64,000 bases of DNA from assembly GCA_965263035.1 (NCBI GenBank), contig OZ253580.1:640001-704000 (forward strand). Direction: 5' to 3'. The stretch comes from Acidobacteriota bacterium. GTDB lineage: Bacteria; Acidobacteriota; UBA6911; RPQK01; JAJDTT01. Numbering within the stretch: the first letter of the stretch is position 1; every line of letters starts with the position of its first letter. Shown here one piece after another: positions 38,578 to 64,000 of this stretch. The notes beneath the pieces were generated by a model. The model did no database searches. It was not told the DNA's origin and saw nothing but the letters and a program-made list of their open reading frames with translations. The position numbers and the translations under genes are program-made.

Positions 38578-40634
38578 CTCAGTCCGTAGAGATGGATCAC
38601 CTGGACAACATCGCCGCGAGCGCATTTCCAGGCTATCTGGTCCGTAAGGACCTGGTTCGACGCTACGCGCGCCAATACCCCGTTCCGACCTATGTCGTGG
38701 AATTCCTCCTCGGGCGCTACTGCGCGAGCGTTGACGAGGAAGAGATCGAGGAGGGGTTGGCCATTGTAGAAAAGCAGCTCCAAGGCCGGACGGTCCGGAC
38801 GAGTGATCGCGAGATCTTCAAGTCACGGGCGCGGGAGCGTGGTTCCGTCAAGCTGATCGATATCGTTCGTGCGCGCTTGGACGCTCGGAACGACTGTTAC
38901 GTCGCCGAGCTTCCGAGTCTGCATCTGAAGGACGTCCAGGTCGCAGATTCCATTGTCAAAGACAACGAGAGGATGCTCGCAGACGGATTCTACGCGGAGG
39001 TCAAACTCACGTACGACCCCATCACAGCCCAGGAGAAAAAAGGCCGACCGTTTCACATCGGCCTGCTGCGCCCGATTCAGATGTCGAACCCGCACGTACT
39101 CGACGTTCTGGCCGCGGGGCGCCAAGCATTTGATACGGAGCAGTGGCGTGACTTTCTGATCCGCTCCACCGGCCTCGAACCTGAAGCGTTGGGAGAGCGG
39201 GCGAAACGGGTCGCCTTGCTGCGTATGGTTCCATTCGTCGAACGCAACTACAACCTGGTCGAACTCGGTCCTCGCGGGACGGGCAAGAGCCACGTTTACC
39301 AGCAGATCTCGCCATACTCCCATTTGCTTTCAGGCGGCAAAGCCACGGTTGCCAAGATGTTCGTCAACATGGCGAACGGTCGTCGTGGCCTGGTCTGCCA
39401 ATACGATGTCCTCTGCTTCGACGAGATCGCCGGAATCTCCTTTGACCAGAAGGACGGTGTCAACATCATGAAGGGCTACATGGCCGCCGGTGAGTTCAGC
39501 CGGGGAAAGGAGAGCATCCGTGCCGAGGGTTCCATCGTGATGGTCGGCAATTTCGACGTCGATGTTGAGCAACAGCAGCGGATTGGACATCTCCTGAGCC
39601 CGCTACCCAAGCAGATGCGCGACGACACCGCGTTTCACGATCGGATACACTCCTACGCCTCCGGATGGGACTTCCCCAAACTCAATCCCAACGAGCACCT
39701 GACCCATCACTTCGGACTCGTGAGCGACTTCCTGAGCGAATGCTGGTCACGGATGCGTCAGACCAGCCGTCTCACAACGCTGCAGAACCGTGCGTTTTGG
39801 GGTGGGGCTCTTTCGGGCCGCGACATCGAGGCCGTGCACAAGACTACGTCCGGGCTGATCAAGTTGCTGTATCCGGACCCGGAGATGCCCGTTCCCGACG
39901 AAGAGCTCGAGTGGATTCTTCGCTTGGCGTTGGAGTCACGCCGCCGGGTCAAGGAGCAGCAGAAGCGTTGCCTCAAGAGTGAATTCAGAAACACACATTT
40001 CTCGTTCACGCTTGGGGTTGACGGTGTCGAGCAATTTGTCGCGACCCCGGAGCTGCACAGTGACGAGGCTATCGACTCGGACCCGTTGCCTCCCGGGCAA
40101 GTCTGGGCGGTGGGACCGGGTAGCGCTGAAGCGGGAGTCGGACTTTATCGAATCGAGGTGGCCGTCGGTCCAGGAGGAGGCAGCAAGATCCTGAACCAGC
40201 CATCGCCCCCGGCGTTCCGGCAGAGCGTGAAGGTGGGTGAGCAGAATCTCTACGCCCGTGCCAAGGAGCTGGTGGGGAATCGCGATCCCCGCTCCCACGA
40301 ATATACGATCCAACTTCGTCCGTTCGATGCGGACAAATCGGGCACAGGACTGGGCCTCCCGGTCCTGGTGGCTTGTGTCGGCTCGCTTTTGGAACGGAGC
40401 ACACGCGGTGGCGCCATCATCGTGGGACCGCTCAACCTGGGTGGATCCCTTGACCTGATCTACAACCCGATCGCAATAGCGGAGTTGGCGGTGGACAAGC
40501 AGGCCGCCACACTGCTCATGCCCGTGTCGTCCCGGCGTTCCCTCATCGACCTCCCCGATGAGCTATGGACCAAGATCAACATCGAGTTCTACAGCGATCC
40601 CGCTGATGGCGTCTTCAAGGCGCTTCTGGACTGA
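38574..40634 (+). CDS. brxL: BREX Lon-related AAA+ protein BrxL
   Basis: VRKDL, VPTYVVEFLLGRYC, ELGPRGTGKSH, FDEIAG, IMKGYM, AFHDRIH; Lon-like C-terminal domain. Confidence 0.92.
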   Translation: MTQSVEMDHLDNIAASAFPGYLVRKDLVRRYARQYPVPTYVVEFLLGRYCASVDEEEIEEGLAIVEKQLQGRTVRTSDREIFKSRARERGSVKLIDIVRARLDARNDCYVAELPSLHLKDVQVADSIVKDNERMLADGFYAEVKLTYDPITAQEKKGRPFHIGLLRPIQMSNPHVLDVLAAGRQAFDTEQWRDFLIRSTGLEPEALGERAKRVALLRMVPFVERNYNLVELGPRGTGKSHVYQQISPYSHLLSGGKATVAKMFVNMANGRRGLVCQYDVLCFDEIAGISFDQKDGVNIMKGYMAAGEFSRGKESIRAEGSIVMVGNFDVDVEQQQRIGHLLSPLPKQMRDDTAFHDRIHSYASGWDFPKLNPNEHLTHHFGLVSDFLSECWSRMRQTSRLTTLQNRAFWGGALSGRDIEAVHKTTSGLIKLLYPDPEMPVPDEELEWILRLALESRRRVKEQQKRCLKSEFRNTHFSFTLGVDGVEQFVATPELHSDEAIDSDPLPPGQVWAVGPGSAEAGVGLYRIEVAVGPGGGSKILNQPSPPAFRQSVKVGEQNLYARAKELVGNRDPRSHEYTIQLRPFDADKSGTGLGLPVLVACVGSLLERSTRGGAIIVGPLNLGGSLDLIYNPIAIAELAVDKQAATLLMPVSSRRSLIDLPDELWTKINIEFYSDPADGVFKALLD

Positions 40635-40734
40635 AGACCTCGCCGCCGTCCAGACGGATTACGCTGGGACAGCCGCAGTCGCTGTACAGCCGGAATCTTC
40701 AGGGGCCGCTTCTTGCTCCGATTCGGACCGAAGA

Positions 40735-41402
40735 GGGCACCCACAAGGTCGCGGTAGGGACGCCGGTTGCCCAGCGCCCCCCCGCGCAGATCCGTGCGTG
40801 CCCGCTAAGGCACACGGCTCCTACTTCAGGTAATGACGGCGGGTCGTGACACCCGCCATATCCGACCCCCACCTGGGTCACGGCTGCCCGGCTCTGAGTC
40901 CGGTCCGTGCTTTGGTGTGCCGAATTCCCCTTGGTTCCACCCCTTCGCTCCACCGACTCCGCAGAGAGTTCCCCCTCCTTGTTCGCCCGCTTCATCACTA
41001 CTATGGGTGAATCCGATTGCTTCCTCTCTCCCCTCATGGGTTACGGCTTTCTCCTTTCTCACAAGGCCCCGGCTCTCGCCGGGGGAGAGAAAGCCCTCCC
41101 AGGTCCCGACACAAGACGTACGTGCGTGCTTGGATTCCTCGACACCGCGGAGCCCGACTGGCCCTCACCTTCCCGGTCCAGCCGGTATTGCCTTCGACCG
41201 CACCCACAGCCTCGGCACTTCCGTTCATGTAGGTTTCGATGCTCCATAGCCCCGCCCACACGCGCCGCTACCGATGCTTCGCCGACACCCTCACGAGTGC
41301 CGACGCACGGCTCGCGGAGAAACGTGGATGGTTACTCCTTCGTTTCAGCGGACTTTCACCGCTTGTCTTGTGCCAGTTAGCCTGGCACACGGGCACCCCT
41401 AC
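40735..41402 (-). repeat. GTAG-type REP hairpin split by the intron
   Basis: Joined flanks give GTAG-GGGTGCCC|CTTGT-GGGTGCCC (41402-41391 + 40747-40735). Confidence 0.7.
40748..41390 (-). ncRNA. ORF-less group II intron (643 nt)
   Basis: 5' GTGTG at 41390; domain V GAGCCGTGTGCCTTAGCGGGCACGCACGGATC (40789-40820); domain VI ending CCCTACCGCGAC at 40748; no RT ORF, domain IV closed by GGCGGGT/ACCCGCC hairpin. Confidence 0.88.
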
Positions 41403-41446
41403 CAAAATTTCTTCGTACAATTGCACAAGATTTTGGGAATAAGGAA

Positions 41447-44400
41447 CTAACCTGGCGCATCCTGAGGGGCAGGATCCAGGGATGACGACGGGTCGCTGGC
41501 TTGCCAGCTCCGCCTGAGCCACATGGTCAAGTCGTCGAAGAGGGTGTAGTAGGTGGGCAGCACCACCAGAGTCAGCACCGTGGAGGCGATGAGACCCCCC
41601 ATGACGGTGCGGGCCATGGGAAAGTACCGCATGTCGAACAGGCTGCTGTAACTGTAGGCCAGCGGGATCAGGCCCACCACCGTGGTGGTCGCCGTCATCA
41701 CGATGGGACGAAAACGATCGCGGCAACCCTCCAGAATGGCGCGGCGACGGTCGATGCCCCGGCGGCGAAGGGTGTTGATATGGTCGATGAGGACGATGCC
41801 GTTGTTCACCACGATGCCGATGAGCACCAGGCATCCGATCTTGGCCATCAGATTGAAGGGCGTCCCGGTGATGAGCAGAAAGCCGGCGATTCCCACCACC
41901 GAAAAGGGCAGCGAGAGCATGATGGCCAGGGGATGAGTCAGGGATTCGAACAGCGCGGCCATGACGAAGTAGACCATGAAGAGCGCCAGCAGGATGTTGA
42001 AGATCCACTCTTGATTCTGCTGCTGGCCCCGTCTGGTCCAGAAACCCAGCGACCACCCATAGCCGTCCGGGTAGTCCAACCCATCCATGACCGCCTTCAC
42101 TTGCTCGATGCCCTCGTCCCTCTTGTCTCCCGTGTAGGTGACGAAGAGGTTGGAATAGGTCTGCCGATCCTCCCTCTGGAGCCGTGCCGCCACCTTCTCG
42201 ACCCGAAGGTCGGCGACCTGAGACAAGAGAATCTCCTCACCCTCGTCTCCATAACCCACCACCGCCGCGCGCAGGTCCTCCAGTCCACTCCGATCCTCCG
42301 GCCGTAGCCGGATGATGACATCCACCTCCCCCTCCGCCGTGCGAAAGCCCCGAACTTGCCGGCCTCGCATCAGGATGCCCAGAATCTCGGAGACGGATTG
42401 GGAGGAGACGCCGTAGCGGCGGGCCAGATCCCGGCGCAAGCGGATCTGAACCTCCTCGCGCGTGCTGTCCCGAGGCGCCGACACCTGGGAAAAGTCCTGG
42501 TGTTCCCGAAGGCGGGTCCGGGCCTCACGCAGCAGTCCGTCCAGGACTCGATGATCGTCGCCATAGAGGCTCACATTGATCCCTTCCCGATTCTGCCTTC
42601 CACTCTGGCCGGACAACTCGATCCGGCAACCCGGTATCACGGGGAGACCGCTCGAGATCTTCCGGCGGATCTCCTCCATCTCTTCCAGCCCGACCTCATC
42701 GCCATGGAAATAGATTTCGGTCGACGCATTGTTGTTGGAGAAGGAACTGAAGACCTGGTCGATCTTGAAGGCCTCCCTGTTCTCCGCAAGAAAGGACTCG
42801 ACCGGATCGACGTAGTCCTTCTCGATCTTGGCGTAGTGATAGTTCTCGGTGAATTCATACCGGATCTGGAAGCTGCCCGGCTCCTGAGCGTCGGGAGCGT
42901 TGTCGGGAACCAGGTTGAGAAGCATCCAGCCGGAGCCGGCGACCGCCAGCGGAACCAGCAGGCCCCCGACCAGGACCCGGTGTCTCAGGGGCCAGGCGAC
43001 GAGTCTCAGGTAGAAATCCATGATCCGCCAGAGGTCCGGTTCCCGCCGTTCCCCGGCGCCCGGCCCGTCATCGCCACCTCCGGTGGGCGACGGTTTGGCG
43101 GCGGCGGGACCCACGTCCAGCTTCAGGAAGCGTCCCATGGCCACTGGGATCAGGGTCAGAGAGAGAAACAGGGAACAAAGGAGTGCGAAGATGATGGCCA
43201 GTCCACAGTGGCGAAGCCAGAAGCTGAGAAAGCTCTCGGCGCCAAAGACCAGGGGAACGAAAATGATGATGGAAGTGAGGGTGGCTGCAATCACCGCCAT
43301 TTGCACCTCCTGGGTTCCCCGTTTGACCGCCTCCAGGCGATCCACACCCTGCTCCAGTTTCCGATAGATCGATTCCAGCACCACGATGGCATTGTCCACC
43401 AGCATTCCGGTGGCCAGCATGAGGCCCATCATGGAGAGGACGTTCAGGCTCAGGCCTCCGAAATACAGGAACCCGACACTCCCGACCAGCGAGAAGGGGA
43501 TGGCCAGAGCGACCGCCATGGCCGCCCTCCATTTGCGAAGGAAGAGGATCAGAACGCCTAGAGCCAGGAGTGCGCCTACGGTCCCGGCCGTGAGGAGACC
43601 CTTGAGGGCCTTGACGATCTCGTCGCCGGCGTTCCGGAGGTATTCGAACTGGATTCCCTTCAAGGCGGGATCCGACCTGATCTTCTCCAACTCCTCCTCC
43701 ACACCTCGCACCGTCGTGACAGTGTTGGCCTCGGCGGCCTTGCGAACCCAGAGCCCCACCGCGTACTCGCCGTTGAGGTGCTGGCTGGCATGGGCCACGG
43801 GACTCTCGTAGCTCACATTGGCGACGTTCTCCAGCCGAAGGCCCCGCTCGTTCACGGGGAAGACTTTGAAGTCCGTCAGAGACCGGAACATTCCCCGGGT
43901 CATGGCTCCGTAGCGGACTCCGCCGTCCGTGAACCTGCCCAGGGAGCGGTCCAGGTTGATGCCGGACAGGTTTCGGAAGAGCCGGCCCACGTCCACCCGG
44001 TACCTTCTGAGTTCATCCAGACGCAGATACACGCCGATTTCGGGTCTCTGGGTTCCGAAGAGCTCCGCTTCGGCCACCCCCGGGACCCGTTCGATCCGTC
44101 TTCTGACCTTCAGGTCCAGAAACTCGTAGGCGGTCTGCAAGTTCCTCCCGGACGCGATCCGCAGTCCCAGGATGGGCTGGTCGTCGGTACTGAAGTTGAC
44201 CACCTCGATCCGCTCCACGTCTTCCGGAAGCTCACCGCGGATCCGCTCCACCTTCTCCCTGACCTCTCCGCGGAGCCGTTGCACGTCCATTCCCATGTCG
44301 AAGAAGGTTTGTACCCCGGCCATGCCGCTGCTGGAGAAAGACTGCATCCATTGAACTCCAGAGACCGTGCTCACGACCTCTTCCACCGGTTTGGTAATGG

Positions 44401-44641
44401 TCTCCAGGACGTGAGCCGGCGTGGCGTTGGGATAGGGGACCCGCACCATCACAAAGGGGAAGTCCAGGTTGGGAAACAACACCAGGGGAATCTTGAACAG
44501 GGACACCACTCCGACCAGGAGCAGCAAGGAAAAAACGGCACAGATGGTCACCGGATAGCGGACCGAGAAACTGGCCAGCGCCGACGAGTTCGCGCGGCCA
44601 ATCGGATTCGATGACGAGTTCGGCTTCCGGTCAACCTGCAT
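41447..44641 (-). CDS. AcrB/AcrD/AcrF-family RND permease subunit
   Basis: GMLVDNAIVVLE, GIVVNNGIVLID, RFRPIVMT; start chosen at ATG 44641. Confidence 0.92.
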   Translation of the reverse strand: MQVDRKPNSSSNPIGRANSSALASFSVRYPVTICAVFSLLLLVGVVSLFKIPLVLFPNLDFPFVMVRVPYPNATPAHVLETITKPVEEVVSTVSGVQWMQSFSSSGMAGVQTFFDMGMDVQRLRGEVREKVERIRGELPEDVERIEVVNFSTDDQPILGLRIASGRNLQTAYEFLDLKVRRRIERVPGVAEAELFGTQRPEIGVYLRLDELRRYRVDVGRLFRNLSGINLDRSLGRFTDGGVRYGAMTRGMFRSLTDFKVFPVNERGLRLENVANVSYESPVAHASQHLNGEYAVGLWVRKAAEANTVTTVRGVEEELEKIRSDPALKGIQFEYLRNAGDEIVKALKGLLTAGTVGALLALGVLILFLRKWRAAMAVALAIPFSLVGSVGFLYFGGLSLNVLSMMGLMLATGMLVDNAIVVLESIYRKLEQGVDRLEAVKRGTQEVQMAVIAATLTSIIIFVPLVFGAESFLSFWLRHCGLAIIFALLCSLFLSLTLIPVAMGRFLKLDVGPAAAKPSPTGGGDDGPGAGERREPDLWRIMDFYLRLVAWPLRHRVLVGGLLVPLAVAGSGWMLLNLVPDNAPDAQEPGSFQIRYEFTENYHYAKIEKDYVDPVESFLAENREAFKIDQVFSSFSNNNASTEIYFHGDEVGLEEMEEIRRKISSGLPVIPGCRIELSGQSGRQNREGINVSLYGDDHRVLDGLLREARTRLREHQDFSQVSAPRDSTREEVQIRLRRDLARRYGVSSQSVSEILGILMRGRQVRGFRTAEGEVDVIIRLRPEDRSGLEDLRAAVVGYGDEGEEILLSQVADLRVEKVAARLQREDRQTYSNLFVTYTGDKRDEGIEQVKAVMDGLDYPDGYGWSLGFWTRRGQQQNQEWIFNILLALFMVYFVMAALFESLTHPLAIMLSLPFSVVGIAGFLLITGTPFNLMAKIGCLVLIGIVVNNGIVLIDHINTLRRRGIDRRRAILEGCRDRFRPIVMTATTTVVGLIPLAYSYSSLFDMRYFPMARTVMGGLIASTVLTLVVLPTYYTLFDDLTMWLRRSWQASDPSSSLDPAPQDAPG

Positions 44642-47600
44642 TTCTGGATGGCTCCGCCTTTCGGTCCAGGCCCTCATAAAGCACTGGCACCAGGATCAAT
44701 GTCAGGAGCGTGGCGAAGAGCAGTCCGCCCATGACGGTGACGGCCATGGGGGCTCGCACCTCCGATCCCTCGCCCCAACCCAGGGACATGGGAAGCAGTC
44801 CCAAAACAGTCGTCAGGGTGGTCATGAGGATGGGCCGCAGCCGCACTCGCCCCGCCTCGACCAGGGCCTCCCGGCGACCCAACCCCGTGCGGCGGAGTTG
44901 ATTGGTGTAGTCGATCAGGACGATTCCGTTGTTGACCACGATCCCGACCAGGATGATCACGCCCAGCAAGACCATGACGCTGACGGTGGATCCGGTCACG
45001 AAAAGGGCGGCCACCACACCGACCAGGGCCACCGGCACCGTGAACAGGATGACGAGCGGGTGGACCAGGGACTCGAATTGCGACGCCATCACCAGATAGA
45101 CCAGGAGTACCGCCAGAGCCAGGGCGAAGAGCAGACTGCTCCGGGAACGGTCGTACTCCTGGTGTTGCCCCCCCAGAGTCACCACCGCATCGGGCGGTAG
45201 CTCCCGGGACATGCCGGAGAGTTCGGCCTCGATCTGCCGGGAGACGGTGCCCAGGTCGGCGCCCGTCAAGTTGGCCGAAACCACGGCCGCGCGTTGGGAA
45301 CCCATCCGGCGTATCTCACCGGGTCCCCGCGACAACTGCACCTGGGCCACGGATCCCAACCGGATCGGCACTTGGGAATTCTCTTCCTCGCTGTCGGATT
45401 CCACCTCAGTCCGCGCCGGATTCGAATTGGACTGCGTTCCACCCGCGCCGAAGCGGGAACCTCCCACGCCGGACCGCGCGGTGTCTGCGGCGCCACCCCG
45501 GTTCCCGCCGGCGCCGTCCATCCGAGTGTTGATGACTAGATCGCGAATATCCTGAATCGCGTTCCGATCCGATTCGGCCGCCTGGACGAGAATGTCGAGC
45601 TGTCTCTCCTGGTCCCGGTAGCGAGAGGCCACCTCGCCGCGGATCTTGCTCCTCAGGATCTCAGCCGCCTGACCTTCGTCCAGGCCCAGCCGAGCCAATT
45701 GCTCCCGCCGAAACCTGATCTGGACCTCGGGGTTCCCCAATCGGGTCGAACTCTGAACATCGGCCAAGCCGTCGATCCCGGAAAGCCGAGCCATCACTTT
45801 CTCGGCGATGCTCCGCTGCTCCGCGAGGTCGTAGCTGTAGATCTCCACCTCCACCGGCTGTCTGAAGCTGAACAGGGTGGGACGGCCGAACAGGTGGGTA
45901 AGTCCCGGATATTGTCCCAGCAGACTCCTGGTGCGGCCGATCACACGCTCCTCGCCCGCCTTGTCGCGGCCGTCCTGCATGGAGACGTGAATCCAGCCCC
46001 GGTGCTCCTCGAGCGGACCCGTCGCGAACTGGTCATCGGCCCCTCCTCCCACGCTGGAGAAGACGGTGTCCACCCCGTCCAGCGCCAACACCTGGCTCTC
46101 GACCTCCCGGATGATCCGATCGGTCTCTTCCAAAGGCTTTCCTTGGGGAAGCTGGATCTCAAAGGAGAACTTTCCCTGAACCAGGGATGGGATCAACTCG
46201 GTGCCGAGGAACTGGGCCAAACCGGCGCTGACACCCACCAGGCCCAAGGTGAGAGCCAATACGCTCCCCTTGTGGTCGAGAGACCAGGCCAGGAAGCGGG
46301 GATAGGTTCGCCGCAGAGACTCGAAGCCGGAATCGAACCGCCCCAGCAAGGGGTTCAGGGGTATCAGCAGGCCTCTCCCCAGAGTCCTGAGCAAACGTCT
46401 CAGGTCGCCAACGACGACGAGAATCAGATCCACGGTGAGGAACTTCCAGACCCGCGCCCCGCCGCGTCCCGCGGCTCGGAACAGACGCGCCAGCCGGGCT
46501 TCCTCGCCGCCTGCCGCCGGGACCTGCCCGTTGCCGGACCGGGGGACCGGTTCCACCGCGATCCGCCGCCGGGACAGGAGCATGGGAATGACGGTGAGGG
46601 CGACGGCCAGGGAGGCGAGGAGGGAGTAGGTGATGGTCAGGGCCTGATCCTTGAAGAGCTGGCCCGCAATCCCCTCCACGAAGATCAGGGGCAGAAAGAC
46701 GGCCACCGTGGTCAAAGTCGACGCCGCCACGGCCTGCCCCACCTCTCGGGTGCCCTGATAGACGGCCTCCGCCAAGTCCCGGTTCCGCCTTCGGTGCCGG
46801 TGGATCGATTCCAGCACCACGATGGAATTGTCCACCAGCATGCCGACTCCCAAGGCCACTCCGCCCAGCGACATGATGTTCAGGGTCACGCCGGTCTGGT
46901 ACATCAAGGTAAACGTGGCCATGACGGAAATCGGGATGGAGAGGCCGATGGTGGCGGTGCTGCGAAGGTCCCGAAGAAAGACGAACAGGACGAACGTCGC
47001 CAGCAATCCTCCCAGGAGGGCCGCCGCCGCCACGTTCCGGACCGCCAGACTGATGAACTGCGCCTGGTCGTAGACGATCTCGTGGGTCAACTCGCCGGGA
47101 TAGGTCTTCTGCTGCTTGAGCTTCTCCAGGCGTTCTCTCACCGCCTCGGAAACCGCCACCGCGTTGGCGTCGCCTTCCTTGTAGATGCGCAGCTCCACAC
47201 TCTCCCGGCCGTTGAAGCGGGATATGACCTCCCGCTCCTTGGTCCCCCGCCAGACTCTGGCCACGTCTCCCAGAACCACTTGGCGTCCATCCAGATTCCG
47301 AACGATGAGGTTCCGAATCTCCTCGACCGATTGGAACTCGTTGAGCACCCGGACCAGATAGTTGGCGTCCAGGTCATACAGGCTCCCGCTCGCCTGATTG
47401 AGGTTCGCCTCGCGAATGACGCTGCTGACCTCGCTGATTGGAAGGTTCAGCTCGGCCAGCCGTTTCTCGTCGATCTCGATCCGGATCTGCTCCTCGCGGC
47501 CGCCGGCCACTTTGACCGCCGCCACTCCCGAAGTCGATTCCAGACCTTGCTTCACCTTTCGCTCCGCCAGGTCCCGGACTCGGCTGAGGGGGGCGTCCCC

Positions 47601-62150: not shown

Positions 62151-62344
62151 GGGGCAGAGGTCGAAAGATCCTCCTCGTCCTCCAGGTGAACGGGGGTGTC
62201 AGCCGGTCCCGGAGTCGCATTCATGATGCCACAGACGACTGCTAAATCGAGGTTATCGGGTTGACGCCGGCGGTGGTCTCTTGAAAGCGCCCCGTTGCTC
62301 CGATAACATGATCGGTTGAGTCCCGGCTTGCGGGCCCGAGACCA

Positions 62345-64000
<1,656 letters not shown>

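Follow-up and report, generated by a model that had tools for sequence, protein, structure and literature searches.

Bacterial group II introns are described at three types of target, namely unique homing sites, terminators and attC sites (2015 review, PMC4424553). The closest precedent for the element reported here is the intron TeI3 of T. elongatus (PMC2882425), in its form lacking an open reading frame (ORF). Our subject is a 643-nt ORF-less group II intron on the minus strand of a 64,000-nt stretch of Acidobacteriota DNA (hereafter the window; GenBank assembly GCA_965263035.1, contig OZ253580.1, positions 640,001 to 704,000), where it interrupts a repetitive extragenic palindrome (REP). 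We interpret it, with a probability of roughly 0.85, as a non-autonomous, ORF-deleted intron that homes into REPs and whose guide sequences track the variants of those REPs.

TeI3 and the REP intron are alike in several respects. For both, the copies point to a single ORF deletion with identical breakpoints that left N- and C-terminal remnants of the gene, and the compact derivative has proliferated. Both comprise families with diverged exon-binding sites (EBS1, EBS2 and EBS3) that match different sites, and both insert into non-essential repeated DNA, as does TeI4 (PMC2882425). They differ in other respects. Mobilization in trans was demonstrated for TeI3 (PMC2882425), whereas for the REP intron we infer it. 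The TeI3 helpers are closely related intron-encoded proteins (IEPs) from the same genome, endonuclease (En)-plus and of the CL/IIB class, whereas the IEP of the REP intron family has no En match and no cognate IEP was found in the genome under study (G000). TeI introns target other introns, insertion sequence (IS) elements and unique sites, whereas the REP intron targets REP hairpins of the host and, unlike TeI3, has EBS variants that follow REP variants across species (PMC2882425).

Association with a DNA stem-loop, an intergenic site and an En-less IEP are features shared with class C (IIC) introns (Zimmerly & Semper 2015, PMC4424553). However, IIC introns have no EBS2 and a partial EBS1 (Nagy 2013, PMC3753933), whereas the REP intron has 6 + 5 + 1 pairing positions. 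Moreover, IIC introns sit downstream of the hairpin of terminators or attC sites (PMC4424553), whereas the REP intron splits its hairpin and falls in Rfam class D1D4-6. Membership of class C was considered and ruled out, since the intron possesses a covarying EBS2 and a covarying 6-nt EBS1 and inserts within the hairpin. By features rather than by phylogeny, the REP intron can be likened to the IIE/IIF introns and to unclassified IIB-like En-minus introns (PMC3753933; Toro & Martinez-Abarca 2013, PMC3552965). These also have a small ribozyme, a reverse transcriptase (RT) but no En match, EBS1 and EBS2 both in domain Id, and a 3' end reading AC; the available portions of these two papers do not mention REP targeting.

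REPs are known as a multicopy, harmless landing site for the IS elements ISPpu9, ISPpu10, IS1397 and ISPa11 (Tobes & Pareja 2006, PMC1525189). Unlike the REP intron, these are DNA transposons that recognize their target by protein. A group II intron of P. putida KT2440 is also listed, but just 2 of its 9 copies are REP-associated (PMC1525189), so that intron is not REP-specific. We found no description of REP-specific group II homing in the literature searched, the scope of which did not extend to subscription-only papers and supplementary tables. RmInt1 of Sinorhizobium meliloti is a class D, En-minus intron whose retrohoming is tied to replication-fork strands. The REP intron resembles RmInt1 in its En-minus IEP, in homing into a repeated mobile sequence and in the proposed use of fork strands for retrohoming; unlike the REP intron, RmInt1 targets an IS element and is autonomous. 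What appears to be new here is REP homing with guides that track REP variants, ORF-less introns of the TeI3 type being known already.

The intron was delimited by sequence reading, Rfam matches and homologous copies, and runs from its 5' end at 41390 to its 3' end at 40748 (window positions; all intron features given below are on the minus strand). The 5' boundary, read from the sequence, is GUGUG (41386..41390) and fits the consensus GUGYG; in the other six copies in the genome it is GUGCG. Using cmscan, the domain I region was matched to Rfam group-II-D1D4-6 (RF02005) at 41356..41133 with 155.4 bits (gathering score 49, E 9.9e-45). Across 23 unique family sequences, 93.5% of the cells for the 62 base pairs of this model are paired. 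Intron_gpII (RF00029), which covers domains V and VI, matched at 40822..40748 with 35.1 bits (E 5e-05 in a searched stretch of 901 nt). This match places domain V at 40789..40820, and alignment to 1917-nt full-length parents reveals paired changes in the domain V stem between the two lineages. The match and sequence reading together place domain VI at 40748..40788, with a 3' end ...GAC; the terminus at 40748 reads ...CCCUACCGCGAC / ...CCGCGAC, and the candidate bulged branch A was assigned by eye to 40755. The earlier note on this DNA, written from the sequence alone, had described a 643-nt intron with both termini and domains V/VI, and the two Rfam matches and the GUGUG start bear this out. 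Taken together with EBS pairing to the exons, the domain I model, domains V/VI and the boundary motifs indicate that the element is a group II intron, apparently of an IIB-like family.

The exon flanks read GTAGGGGTGCCC on the 5' side and CTTGTGGGTGCCC on the 3' side, exactly as the earlier note had them, and the insertion at the stem-loop junction of a REP stands. The 5' exon part of the REP (41391..41402, minus strand) consists of a GTAG tag and the 5' arm, with intron-binding sites IBS2 GTAGG at 41402-41398 and IBS1 GTGCCC at 41396-41391. The 3' exon part (40735..40747, minus strand) consists of the loop CTTGT and the 3' arm GGGTGCCC, and IBS3 is the C at 40747. Opposite these lie EBS2 CCUAC (41229..41233), an unpaired domain I stretch in the Rfam structure that pairs with IBS2 GUAGG at exon positions -12 to -8; EBS1 GGGUGC (41200..41205), in the 8-nt terminal loop GUGGGUGC of a domain I hairpin in the Rfam alignment; and EBS3, the G at 41140 in a covarying alignment column, which pairs with the C that opens the 3' exon. 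All 12 positions of the window copy pair, 10 by Watson-Crick pairs and 2 by G-U.

The main evidence for guide-directed targeting comes from a table of 39 copies from six congeneric genomes, 7 from G000 and 32 from five congeners. For each copy we tabulated IBS2 (-12 to -8), IBS1 (-6 to -1), exon position +1 and the three intron segments. Each EBS1 form stands opposite its complement: AGUCGC faces IBS1 GCGACU, AGUCCC faces GGGACU, AAUCGC faces GCGAUU, GGGUGC faces GCACCC, GGUCGC faces GCGACC and GGAUGC faces GCAUCU. A seventh form, AACCCC facing GGGGUU, is found in a full-length copy in G005 that lies outside the 39-copy table. EBS2 and IBS2 occur as the pairs GCUCC/GGAGC, CCUAC/GUAGG and CAUGC/GCAUG. 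Among the varying columns, that of EBS3 (window position 41140) alone pairs with exon +1 in 37 of the 39 copies; the states are A/T in 30, G/C in 4 and U/A in 3. Over the 12 positions, pairing is free of mismatches in 19 copies; 18 copies show a single mismatch and 2 show two. The 18 include two copies of a 755-nt variant, whose apparent mismatch is due solely to the intron segments having been taken from the first 350 nt, so that their EBS3 falls outside. Since changes in EBS1, EBS2 and EBS3 are accompanied by changes in IBS1, IBS2 and exon +1, GGGUGC is the true EBS1 and targeting is by base pairing. This agrees with the earlier note, which had assigned GGGUGC to the EBS1 loop. Its proposal that GCACCC is the fully paired REP arm also holds, GCACCC being the usual 5' arm and the perfect site that two sister copies (G007_L037 and G006_L054) occupy. 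The window copy belongs to a sublineage in which all three guides changed to fit a GTAG-tagged REP.

It should also be noted that three 1912-nt full-length copies in G004 (L056-L058) sit just after a different palindrome (AGATGC-ATGG-GCATCT). Their 24-nt 5' flanks are identical, their 22-nt 3' flanks are nearly so, and EBS1, EBS2 and EBS3 match the target, which may be another repeated or mobile element.

The genome (one contig, 6,198,070 bp, 62% G+C) contains seven full ORF-less introns, so the element is multicopy, as the earlier note had supposed. Exactly seven RF02005 matches exceed the cut-off, and the other six copies are 89-92% identical to the window copy. A 67-nt 5' intron fragment (L008, G000:C1:4424636-4424702) lies in the correct target directly after GGCGACT and is truncated downstream. 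A sub-threshold RF02005 match outside the window (G000:C1:2513011-2513270, minus strand; 34.9 bits, E 5.6e-8), with no RT match nearby, may represent an intron that has diverged or degenerated.

Six of the seven copies have EBS1 AGUCGC and split hairpins of a GGAG-tagged family (family 1), with GGAG[G/C]GGCGACT on the 5' side and TTCTTGTCGCCC-type sequence on the 3' side, one base into the loop; the REP interrupted by the window copy is of a second family, tagged GTAG. The concept of a GTAG tag for REPs has been described (PMC3733652). The flanks are REP hairpins, as the earlier note had proposed, but the main target family in this genome is the GGAG-tagged one rather than that of the window copy. 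Family 1 accounts for 192 matches to GGAG[CG]GGCG[AG]CT and 253 matches to the hairpin pattern; a looser pattern gives 435 matches, and because 151 neighbouring pairs lie within 100 nt of each other, these REPs form arrays. The flank motif of the window copy is likewise repeated in the genome, as had been predicted, with 13 loci of GGGCACCC-N3-7-GGGTGCCC and about 20 loci matching the reconstructed empty site (including the stem-centre variants CG/CG, CA/TG, TA/TG and TG/CG).

The exact 25-mers GTAGGGGCACCCCTTGTGGGTGCCC and GTAGGGGCGACCCTTGTGGTCGCCC occur 107 + 84 times in G005, 38 + 17 times in G001 and 7 + 1 times in G000, with 0 matches for reversed-pattern controls. In the same exact search GTAGGGGCACCCCTTGTGGGTGCCC was absent from G003 and G004, and GTAGGGGCGACCCTTGTGGTCGCCC from G004 and G008. 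By eye, the coordinates in G005 show the two GTAG subtypes paired in opposed orientation at distances of tens of nucleotides. As short imperfect palindromes that are clustered and of high copy number, the targets have attributes expected of REPs.

The GTAG hairpin is itself carried by a longer repeat, which several of the approximately 20 empty-site loci have in common (about 100-150 nt). At the window locus the repeat takes in about 60 nt before the intron and 45 nt after it (40703..41450, minus strand). These flanks are contiguous at empty sites in several congeners, for example G007:C2:1228437-1228540 and G006:C36:276515-276618. Within G000 the longer repeat recurs near 4812012, 171074, 3852454 and 4137687; it is also present elsewhere as 3' halves, and may be a REPIN (a REP doublet) or a unit resembling a MITE (miniature inverted-repeat transposable element).

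Both REP families are struck at the same structural position, the boundary between the 5' arm and the loop. This is what would be seen if the intron, in the manner of IIC introns, read the shape of the DNA hairpin and base pairing were secondary. We consider that very improbable, since there is a full 6-nt EBS1 together with an EBS2, the insertion falls within the hairpin and not behind it, and the G004 parents follow a different palindrome with matching EBS. In addition, the two REP families differ by few bases, and one copy (G005_L045) combines EBS1 GGUCGC opposite GCGACC with a GTAG tag, a sequence intermediate between them, so stepwise EBS change would explain the shared position. Among distant D1D4-6 introns (IEPs 41-57% identical, from other Acidobacteriota and other phyla), no split hairpin was seen by eye at the 6 loci with both flanks read. 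This also argues against shape recognition, and because of it REP homing looks like a specialization of the intron lineage of this genus.

The window copy itself does not contain an intact RT/maturase gene in domain IV (DIV), where remnants alone are present. The first 56 or so codons survive in what is presumably the DIVa region (40870..41037, minus strand; the ATG at 41037 and an open frame are kept), located by tblastn; they are 71-76% identical to the IEP of full-length relatives, with residues 6-55 at 76% to a congener IEP. About 35 residues of the C-terminus (residues ~485-519) also survive, with 60% identity to the IEP C-terminus. Codons ~57-484, about 1.27 kb, have been deleted, and a hairpin identified by sequence reading and folding lies at the junction (~40833..40859, minus strand). 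The earlier note had the RT ORF replaced by a short hairpin; the hairpin is there, but the start codon and both ends of the gene survive beside it. When 3 full-length copies and 9 ORF-less ones, drawn from four genomes, were aligned, the deletion breakpoints proved identical in all 9 ORF-less copies. The ORF-less copies vary little in the DIV remnant (pi 0.04 at positions 361-440, similar to 0.035 in domain V), which fits a retained IEP-binding site without proving one.

We searched 61 genomes, including G000, for the family. All 8 same-genus genomes had a match, as did none of the 6 sister-genus genomes, and five genomes of other families in the order gave weak matches alone (73-78% identity) to the 3'-terminal ~90 nt. 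Among the genomes searched, the family therefore appears confined to one genus. Full-length copies in congeners are 1917 nt (G002, G007 and one in G005) or 1912 nt (G004) long. The parent IEP has 519 residues, and RVT_1 at residues 137-369 is its sole Pfam match, with no endonuclease or GIIM match at E <= 0.01. Its ORF spans domains V/VI up to the last intron bases, and close relatives are encoded in metagenome-assembled genomes of Acidobacteriota. ORF-less copies of 640-648 nt occur in G005, G006 and G007. In a midpoint-rooted FastTree of the ribozyme parts, the ORF-less copies form one clade against the full-length copies, the clade being taken from topology without regard to support values. 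The single clade and shared breakpoints point to one old ORF deletion behind all ORF-less copies, after which the non-autonomous lineage seems to have diversified its guides and reached at least 4 species. Over its first 545 nt it shares 82-89% identity with each of the full-length lineages, and in the DIV remnant 79-83%.

Several ORF-less copies in the congeners differ from the common form. The 755-nt variant is lengthened by an insert of about 112 nt close to intron position 93 and is found at what is seemingly the same locus in two genomes (L039, G007:C2:1903534-1904888, and L055, G006:C27:73760-75114). Two of the three clade-mates of the window copy, the sisters named above (L037, G007:C2:3223216-3224453, and L054, G006:C36:158767-160005), begin with GAGCG rather than GUGYG and are probably splicing-defective, though their target sites are perfectly matched. 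A single REP array at L038 (G007:C2:4405117-4407565) contains two ORF-less copies separated by 563 nt; their 22-nt 3' flanks are the same, whereas their 5' flanks differ.

Within G000, copies c3066k and c2436k are 100% identical over 642 nt, with c6114k differing by 1 nt, and c3743k and c3351k are likewise 100% identical. The identical copies occupy different REP variants with unrelated flanks. Given that orthologous genes are 87-90% identical between species, these insertions are recent. An alternative is that the introns spread as DNA, copied along with their REPs by transposition of a REP-associated tyrosine transposase (RAYT) or REPIN, by recombination or by gene conversion. The shared 3' flank of the two L038 copies would fit such a process, as would the position of one copy beside a RAYT-like gene in a REP array. 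The genome has two Y1_Tnp loci. One is an intact ORF of 238 aa (34.9 bits against a cut-off of 23, with HVH and YWDR motifs recognized by eye) that ends inside the REP holding copy c2482k, so that this copy sits directly after the stop codon; three tandem family-1 REPs then follow, on the 3' side only. The other contains an interrupting stop and has a GGGGGTT...AACCCCC variant on its flanks, and neither locus is linked to the GTAG family. However, identical introns lie in different REP variants (GCGGCGACT, GGGGCGACT and GCGGCGGCT) with unrelated flanks, and a DNA-level copier would not be expected to yield EBS1, EBS2 and EBS3 that track the local IBS over seven variants. We therefore think there is very little chance that spread at the DNA level accounts for the distribution.

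A number of results weigh against a REP-homing intron with guides that track its targets. First, empty GGAG-N-GGCG[AG]CTT sites in G000 outnumber occupied ones by 184 to 6, so activity is low or has stopped; the intron is far from saturating its REP niche. Second, neither a parent intron nor a cognate IEP was found in G000 using blastn (word size 7), tblastn with the remnant peptide and with a congener IEP, Pfam RVT_1 and RF02005. Third, no exon-exon joint was present at the locus in the contigs of three RNA runs and of one run whose kind is unrecorded (X1). Fourth, in 8 of 8 cases (the 67-nt fragment as well as the 7 copies) the sense strand lies on the leading strand, as assigned from GC skew, which reaches its cumulative minimum at 2.86 Mb and its maximum at 5.84 Mb, but 125 of the 184 empty family-1 targets are also leading-sense, and against that baseline 7 of 7 family-1 insertions has P ~0.07. 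Given the REPs' own bias, this replication-strand bias is weakly informative and at most suggestive. Fifth, the domain V/VI score of 35.1 bits is below the RF00029 gathering score of 40. Sixth, domain I helix covariation is modest, with double-sided changes in 5 of 62 pairs among sequences that are close kin, and is too shallow as proof of selection. Seventh, DIV folds no more stably than shuffled sequence (z -0.94), so we claim no DIV structure beyond the obvious hairpins. Lastly, the 5' arm at the window site is GUGCCC instead of GCACCC, which is what gives rise to the two G-U pairs.

As for the RNA data, in two metatranscriptome runs a contig with the upstream ORF has 3 differences in 244 nt and leaves the locus sequence at 41457, so the organism concerned lacks the window arrangement; in the third run the upstream ORF was not covered. 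Summed depths over the intron stem from many related copies and were not used. In one metatranscriptome contig of run X15, 41390 is joined head-to-tail to 40749 with a single additional letter at the joint (summed depth 18.8). No such joint is listed for the other two RNA runs or X1. It is a lead only, compatible with an excised intron RNA circle or with a tandem copy in a related organism.

The excess of good targets that are empty and the missing cognate IEP would also be expected if the copies in G000 were stranded relics, the immobile leftovers of a lost cognate full-length intron that at most splice, with the window copy a fossil. This is a serious contender, although we judge it somewhat short of an even chance. 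The window copy is the sole member of its sublineage in G000, though GTAG sites are available, and the two congener sisters starting with GAGCG have a damaged 5' end. On the other hand, two sets of 100%-identical copies at different REPs indicate very recent moves when set against 10-13% species divergence, and the window copy retains GUGUG, domain V and 12 of 12 EBS/IBS pairs. Furthermore, since the assembly is a single chromosome contig, it would not reveal a helper carried by a plasmid or an unbinned contig.

A helper might instead be resident. Of the 8 RVT_1 matches in G000, five correspond to intact intron RTs, and another two are the halves of a single RT gene. These halves (L014/L015; G000:C1:5053672-5054094 and 5056300-5056566) are RVT_1 pieces of a D1D4-4-class intron RT; the gap of about 2.2 kb between them suggests that something, perhaps a nested element, has inserted into the ORF. 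The remaining match (L016, G000:C1:1811265-1811774) is weak (30.7 bits), lies in a 1253-aa ORF with no group II ribozyme match and seems to be an RT-domain protein of another kind. The ribozymes beside the resident RTs are D1D4-4 or D1D4-3/-1, not D1D4-6. Five intact intron RTs of other classes and one split in two are thus at hand, identity among ORF-less copies implies that they moved recently with no cognate RT present, and relaxed specificity is documented for 'driver' IEPs of T. elongatus (Mohr 2010, PMC2882425). Nonetheless, we regard it as unlikely that IEPs of unrelated classes, from D1D4-4 or D1D4-3 introns, splice and move the ORF-less copies. The resident IEPs are 31-36% identical to the family IEP, and known cross-mobilization is among close relatives (PMC2882425). 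The resident introns share no detectable DNA similarity with the window intron, DIV included; by blastn (word size 7), there was none in G000 beyond the seven copies and the fragment.

Compared to TeI3, then, the genome has the single shared ORF deletion and the good EBS/IBS matches at many sites, but not a related IEP in the single contig searched. The earlier note had envisaged both a helper RT and a RAYT; a RAYT-like gene was found, whereas an RT of the same lineage was not found in G000. In bacteria, introns without an ORF are rare, and a related IEP nearly always occurs alongside them (PMC4424553). G000 would be an exception to this rule, unless the helper is on a replicon outside the single contig.

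Homing of the ORF-deleted intron into REPs could proceed in four steps. The intron would be transcribed by read-through from the upstream gene, and splicing with the help of an IEP would restore the REP. The ribonucleoprotein would then reverse-splice into REP DNA, with EBS2 on the 4-5 nt tag (GGAG or GTAG), EBS1 reading the 5' arm of the palindrome and thereby mimicking the 3' arm, and EBS3 reading the first loop base; landing would thus be at the 5' arm/loop boundary. Finally, cDNA synthesis would be primed at the replication fork, as described for introns with an endonuclease-less IEP (PMC4424553), and the reverse transcription would be carried out by an IEP supplied in trans. It is from sequence features that we infer splicing and mobility of the intron, the latter in trans.

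A more speculative extension, which we think rather unlikely, is a three-tier nest in which a RAYT maintains the REPs or REPINs, and the intron inside the REPs re-tunes EBS1, EBS2 and EBS3 to the locally abundant variant and keeps moving without a cognate RT. If so, the intron would be driven by a distant IEP (31-36% identical) or by a helper visiting on a mobile replicon. It would also be a natural, minimal, guide-programmable ribozyme cargo decoupled from its own RT.

The window site is extragenic, the intron being placed in an 812-nt spacer between convergent ORFs. Upstream is a 1076-aa ORF (41447..44677, minus strand), the C-terminus of which, judged by eye, reads like that of a multi-pass membrane transporter of the resistance-nodulation-division (RND) type. 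Since its stop codon at 41447 lies 56 nt before the intron, this ORF is the likely source of read-through transcription. On the other side, a convergent 686-aa ORF ends at 40634. The orthologous locus after the same 1076-aa ORF is intron-free in congeners (e.g. G006 C36:227405 to 227477). A promoter/terminator scan gave no promoter-like site and one terminator-like match, inside the intron and at chance level. Elsewhere in the window, a thiamine pyrophosphate (TPP) riboswitch (RF00059) was detected at 62341-62447 on the plus strand (57.3 bits, gathering score 54.3), unrelated to the intron.

Homing into a REP family would add a further strategy to the three listed target types of bacterial group II introns. 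Such a strategy would offer hundreds of neutral sites per genome, scarless restoration of the site by splicing and renewal of targets by the REP/RAYT system. The presence of seven copies, some of them identical, without a cognate IEP poses the question of which protein supplies the RT. The family, in which seven states of EBS1 and three each of EBS2 and EBS3 match REP variants, may be viewed as a natural retargeting experiment on a 643-nt ribozyme.

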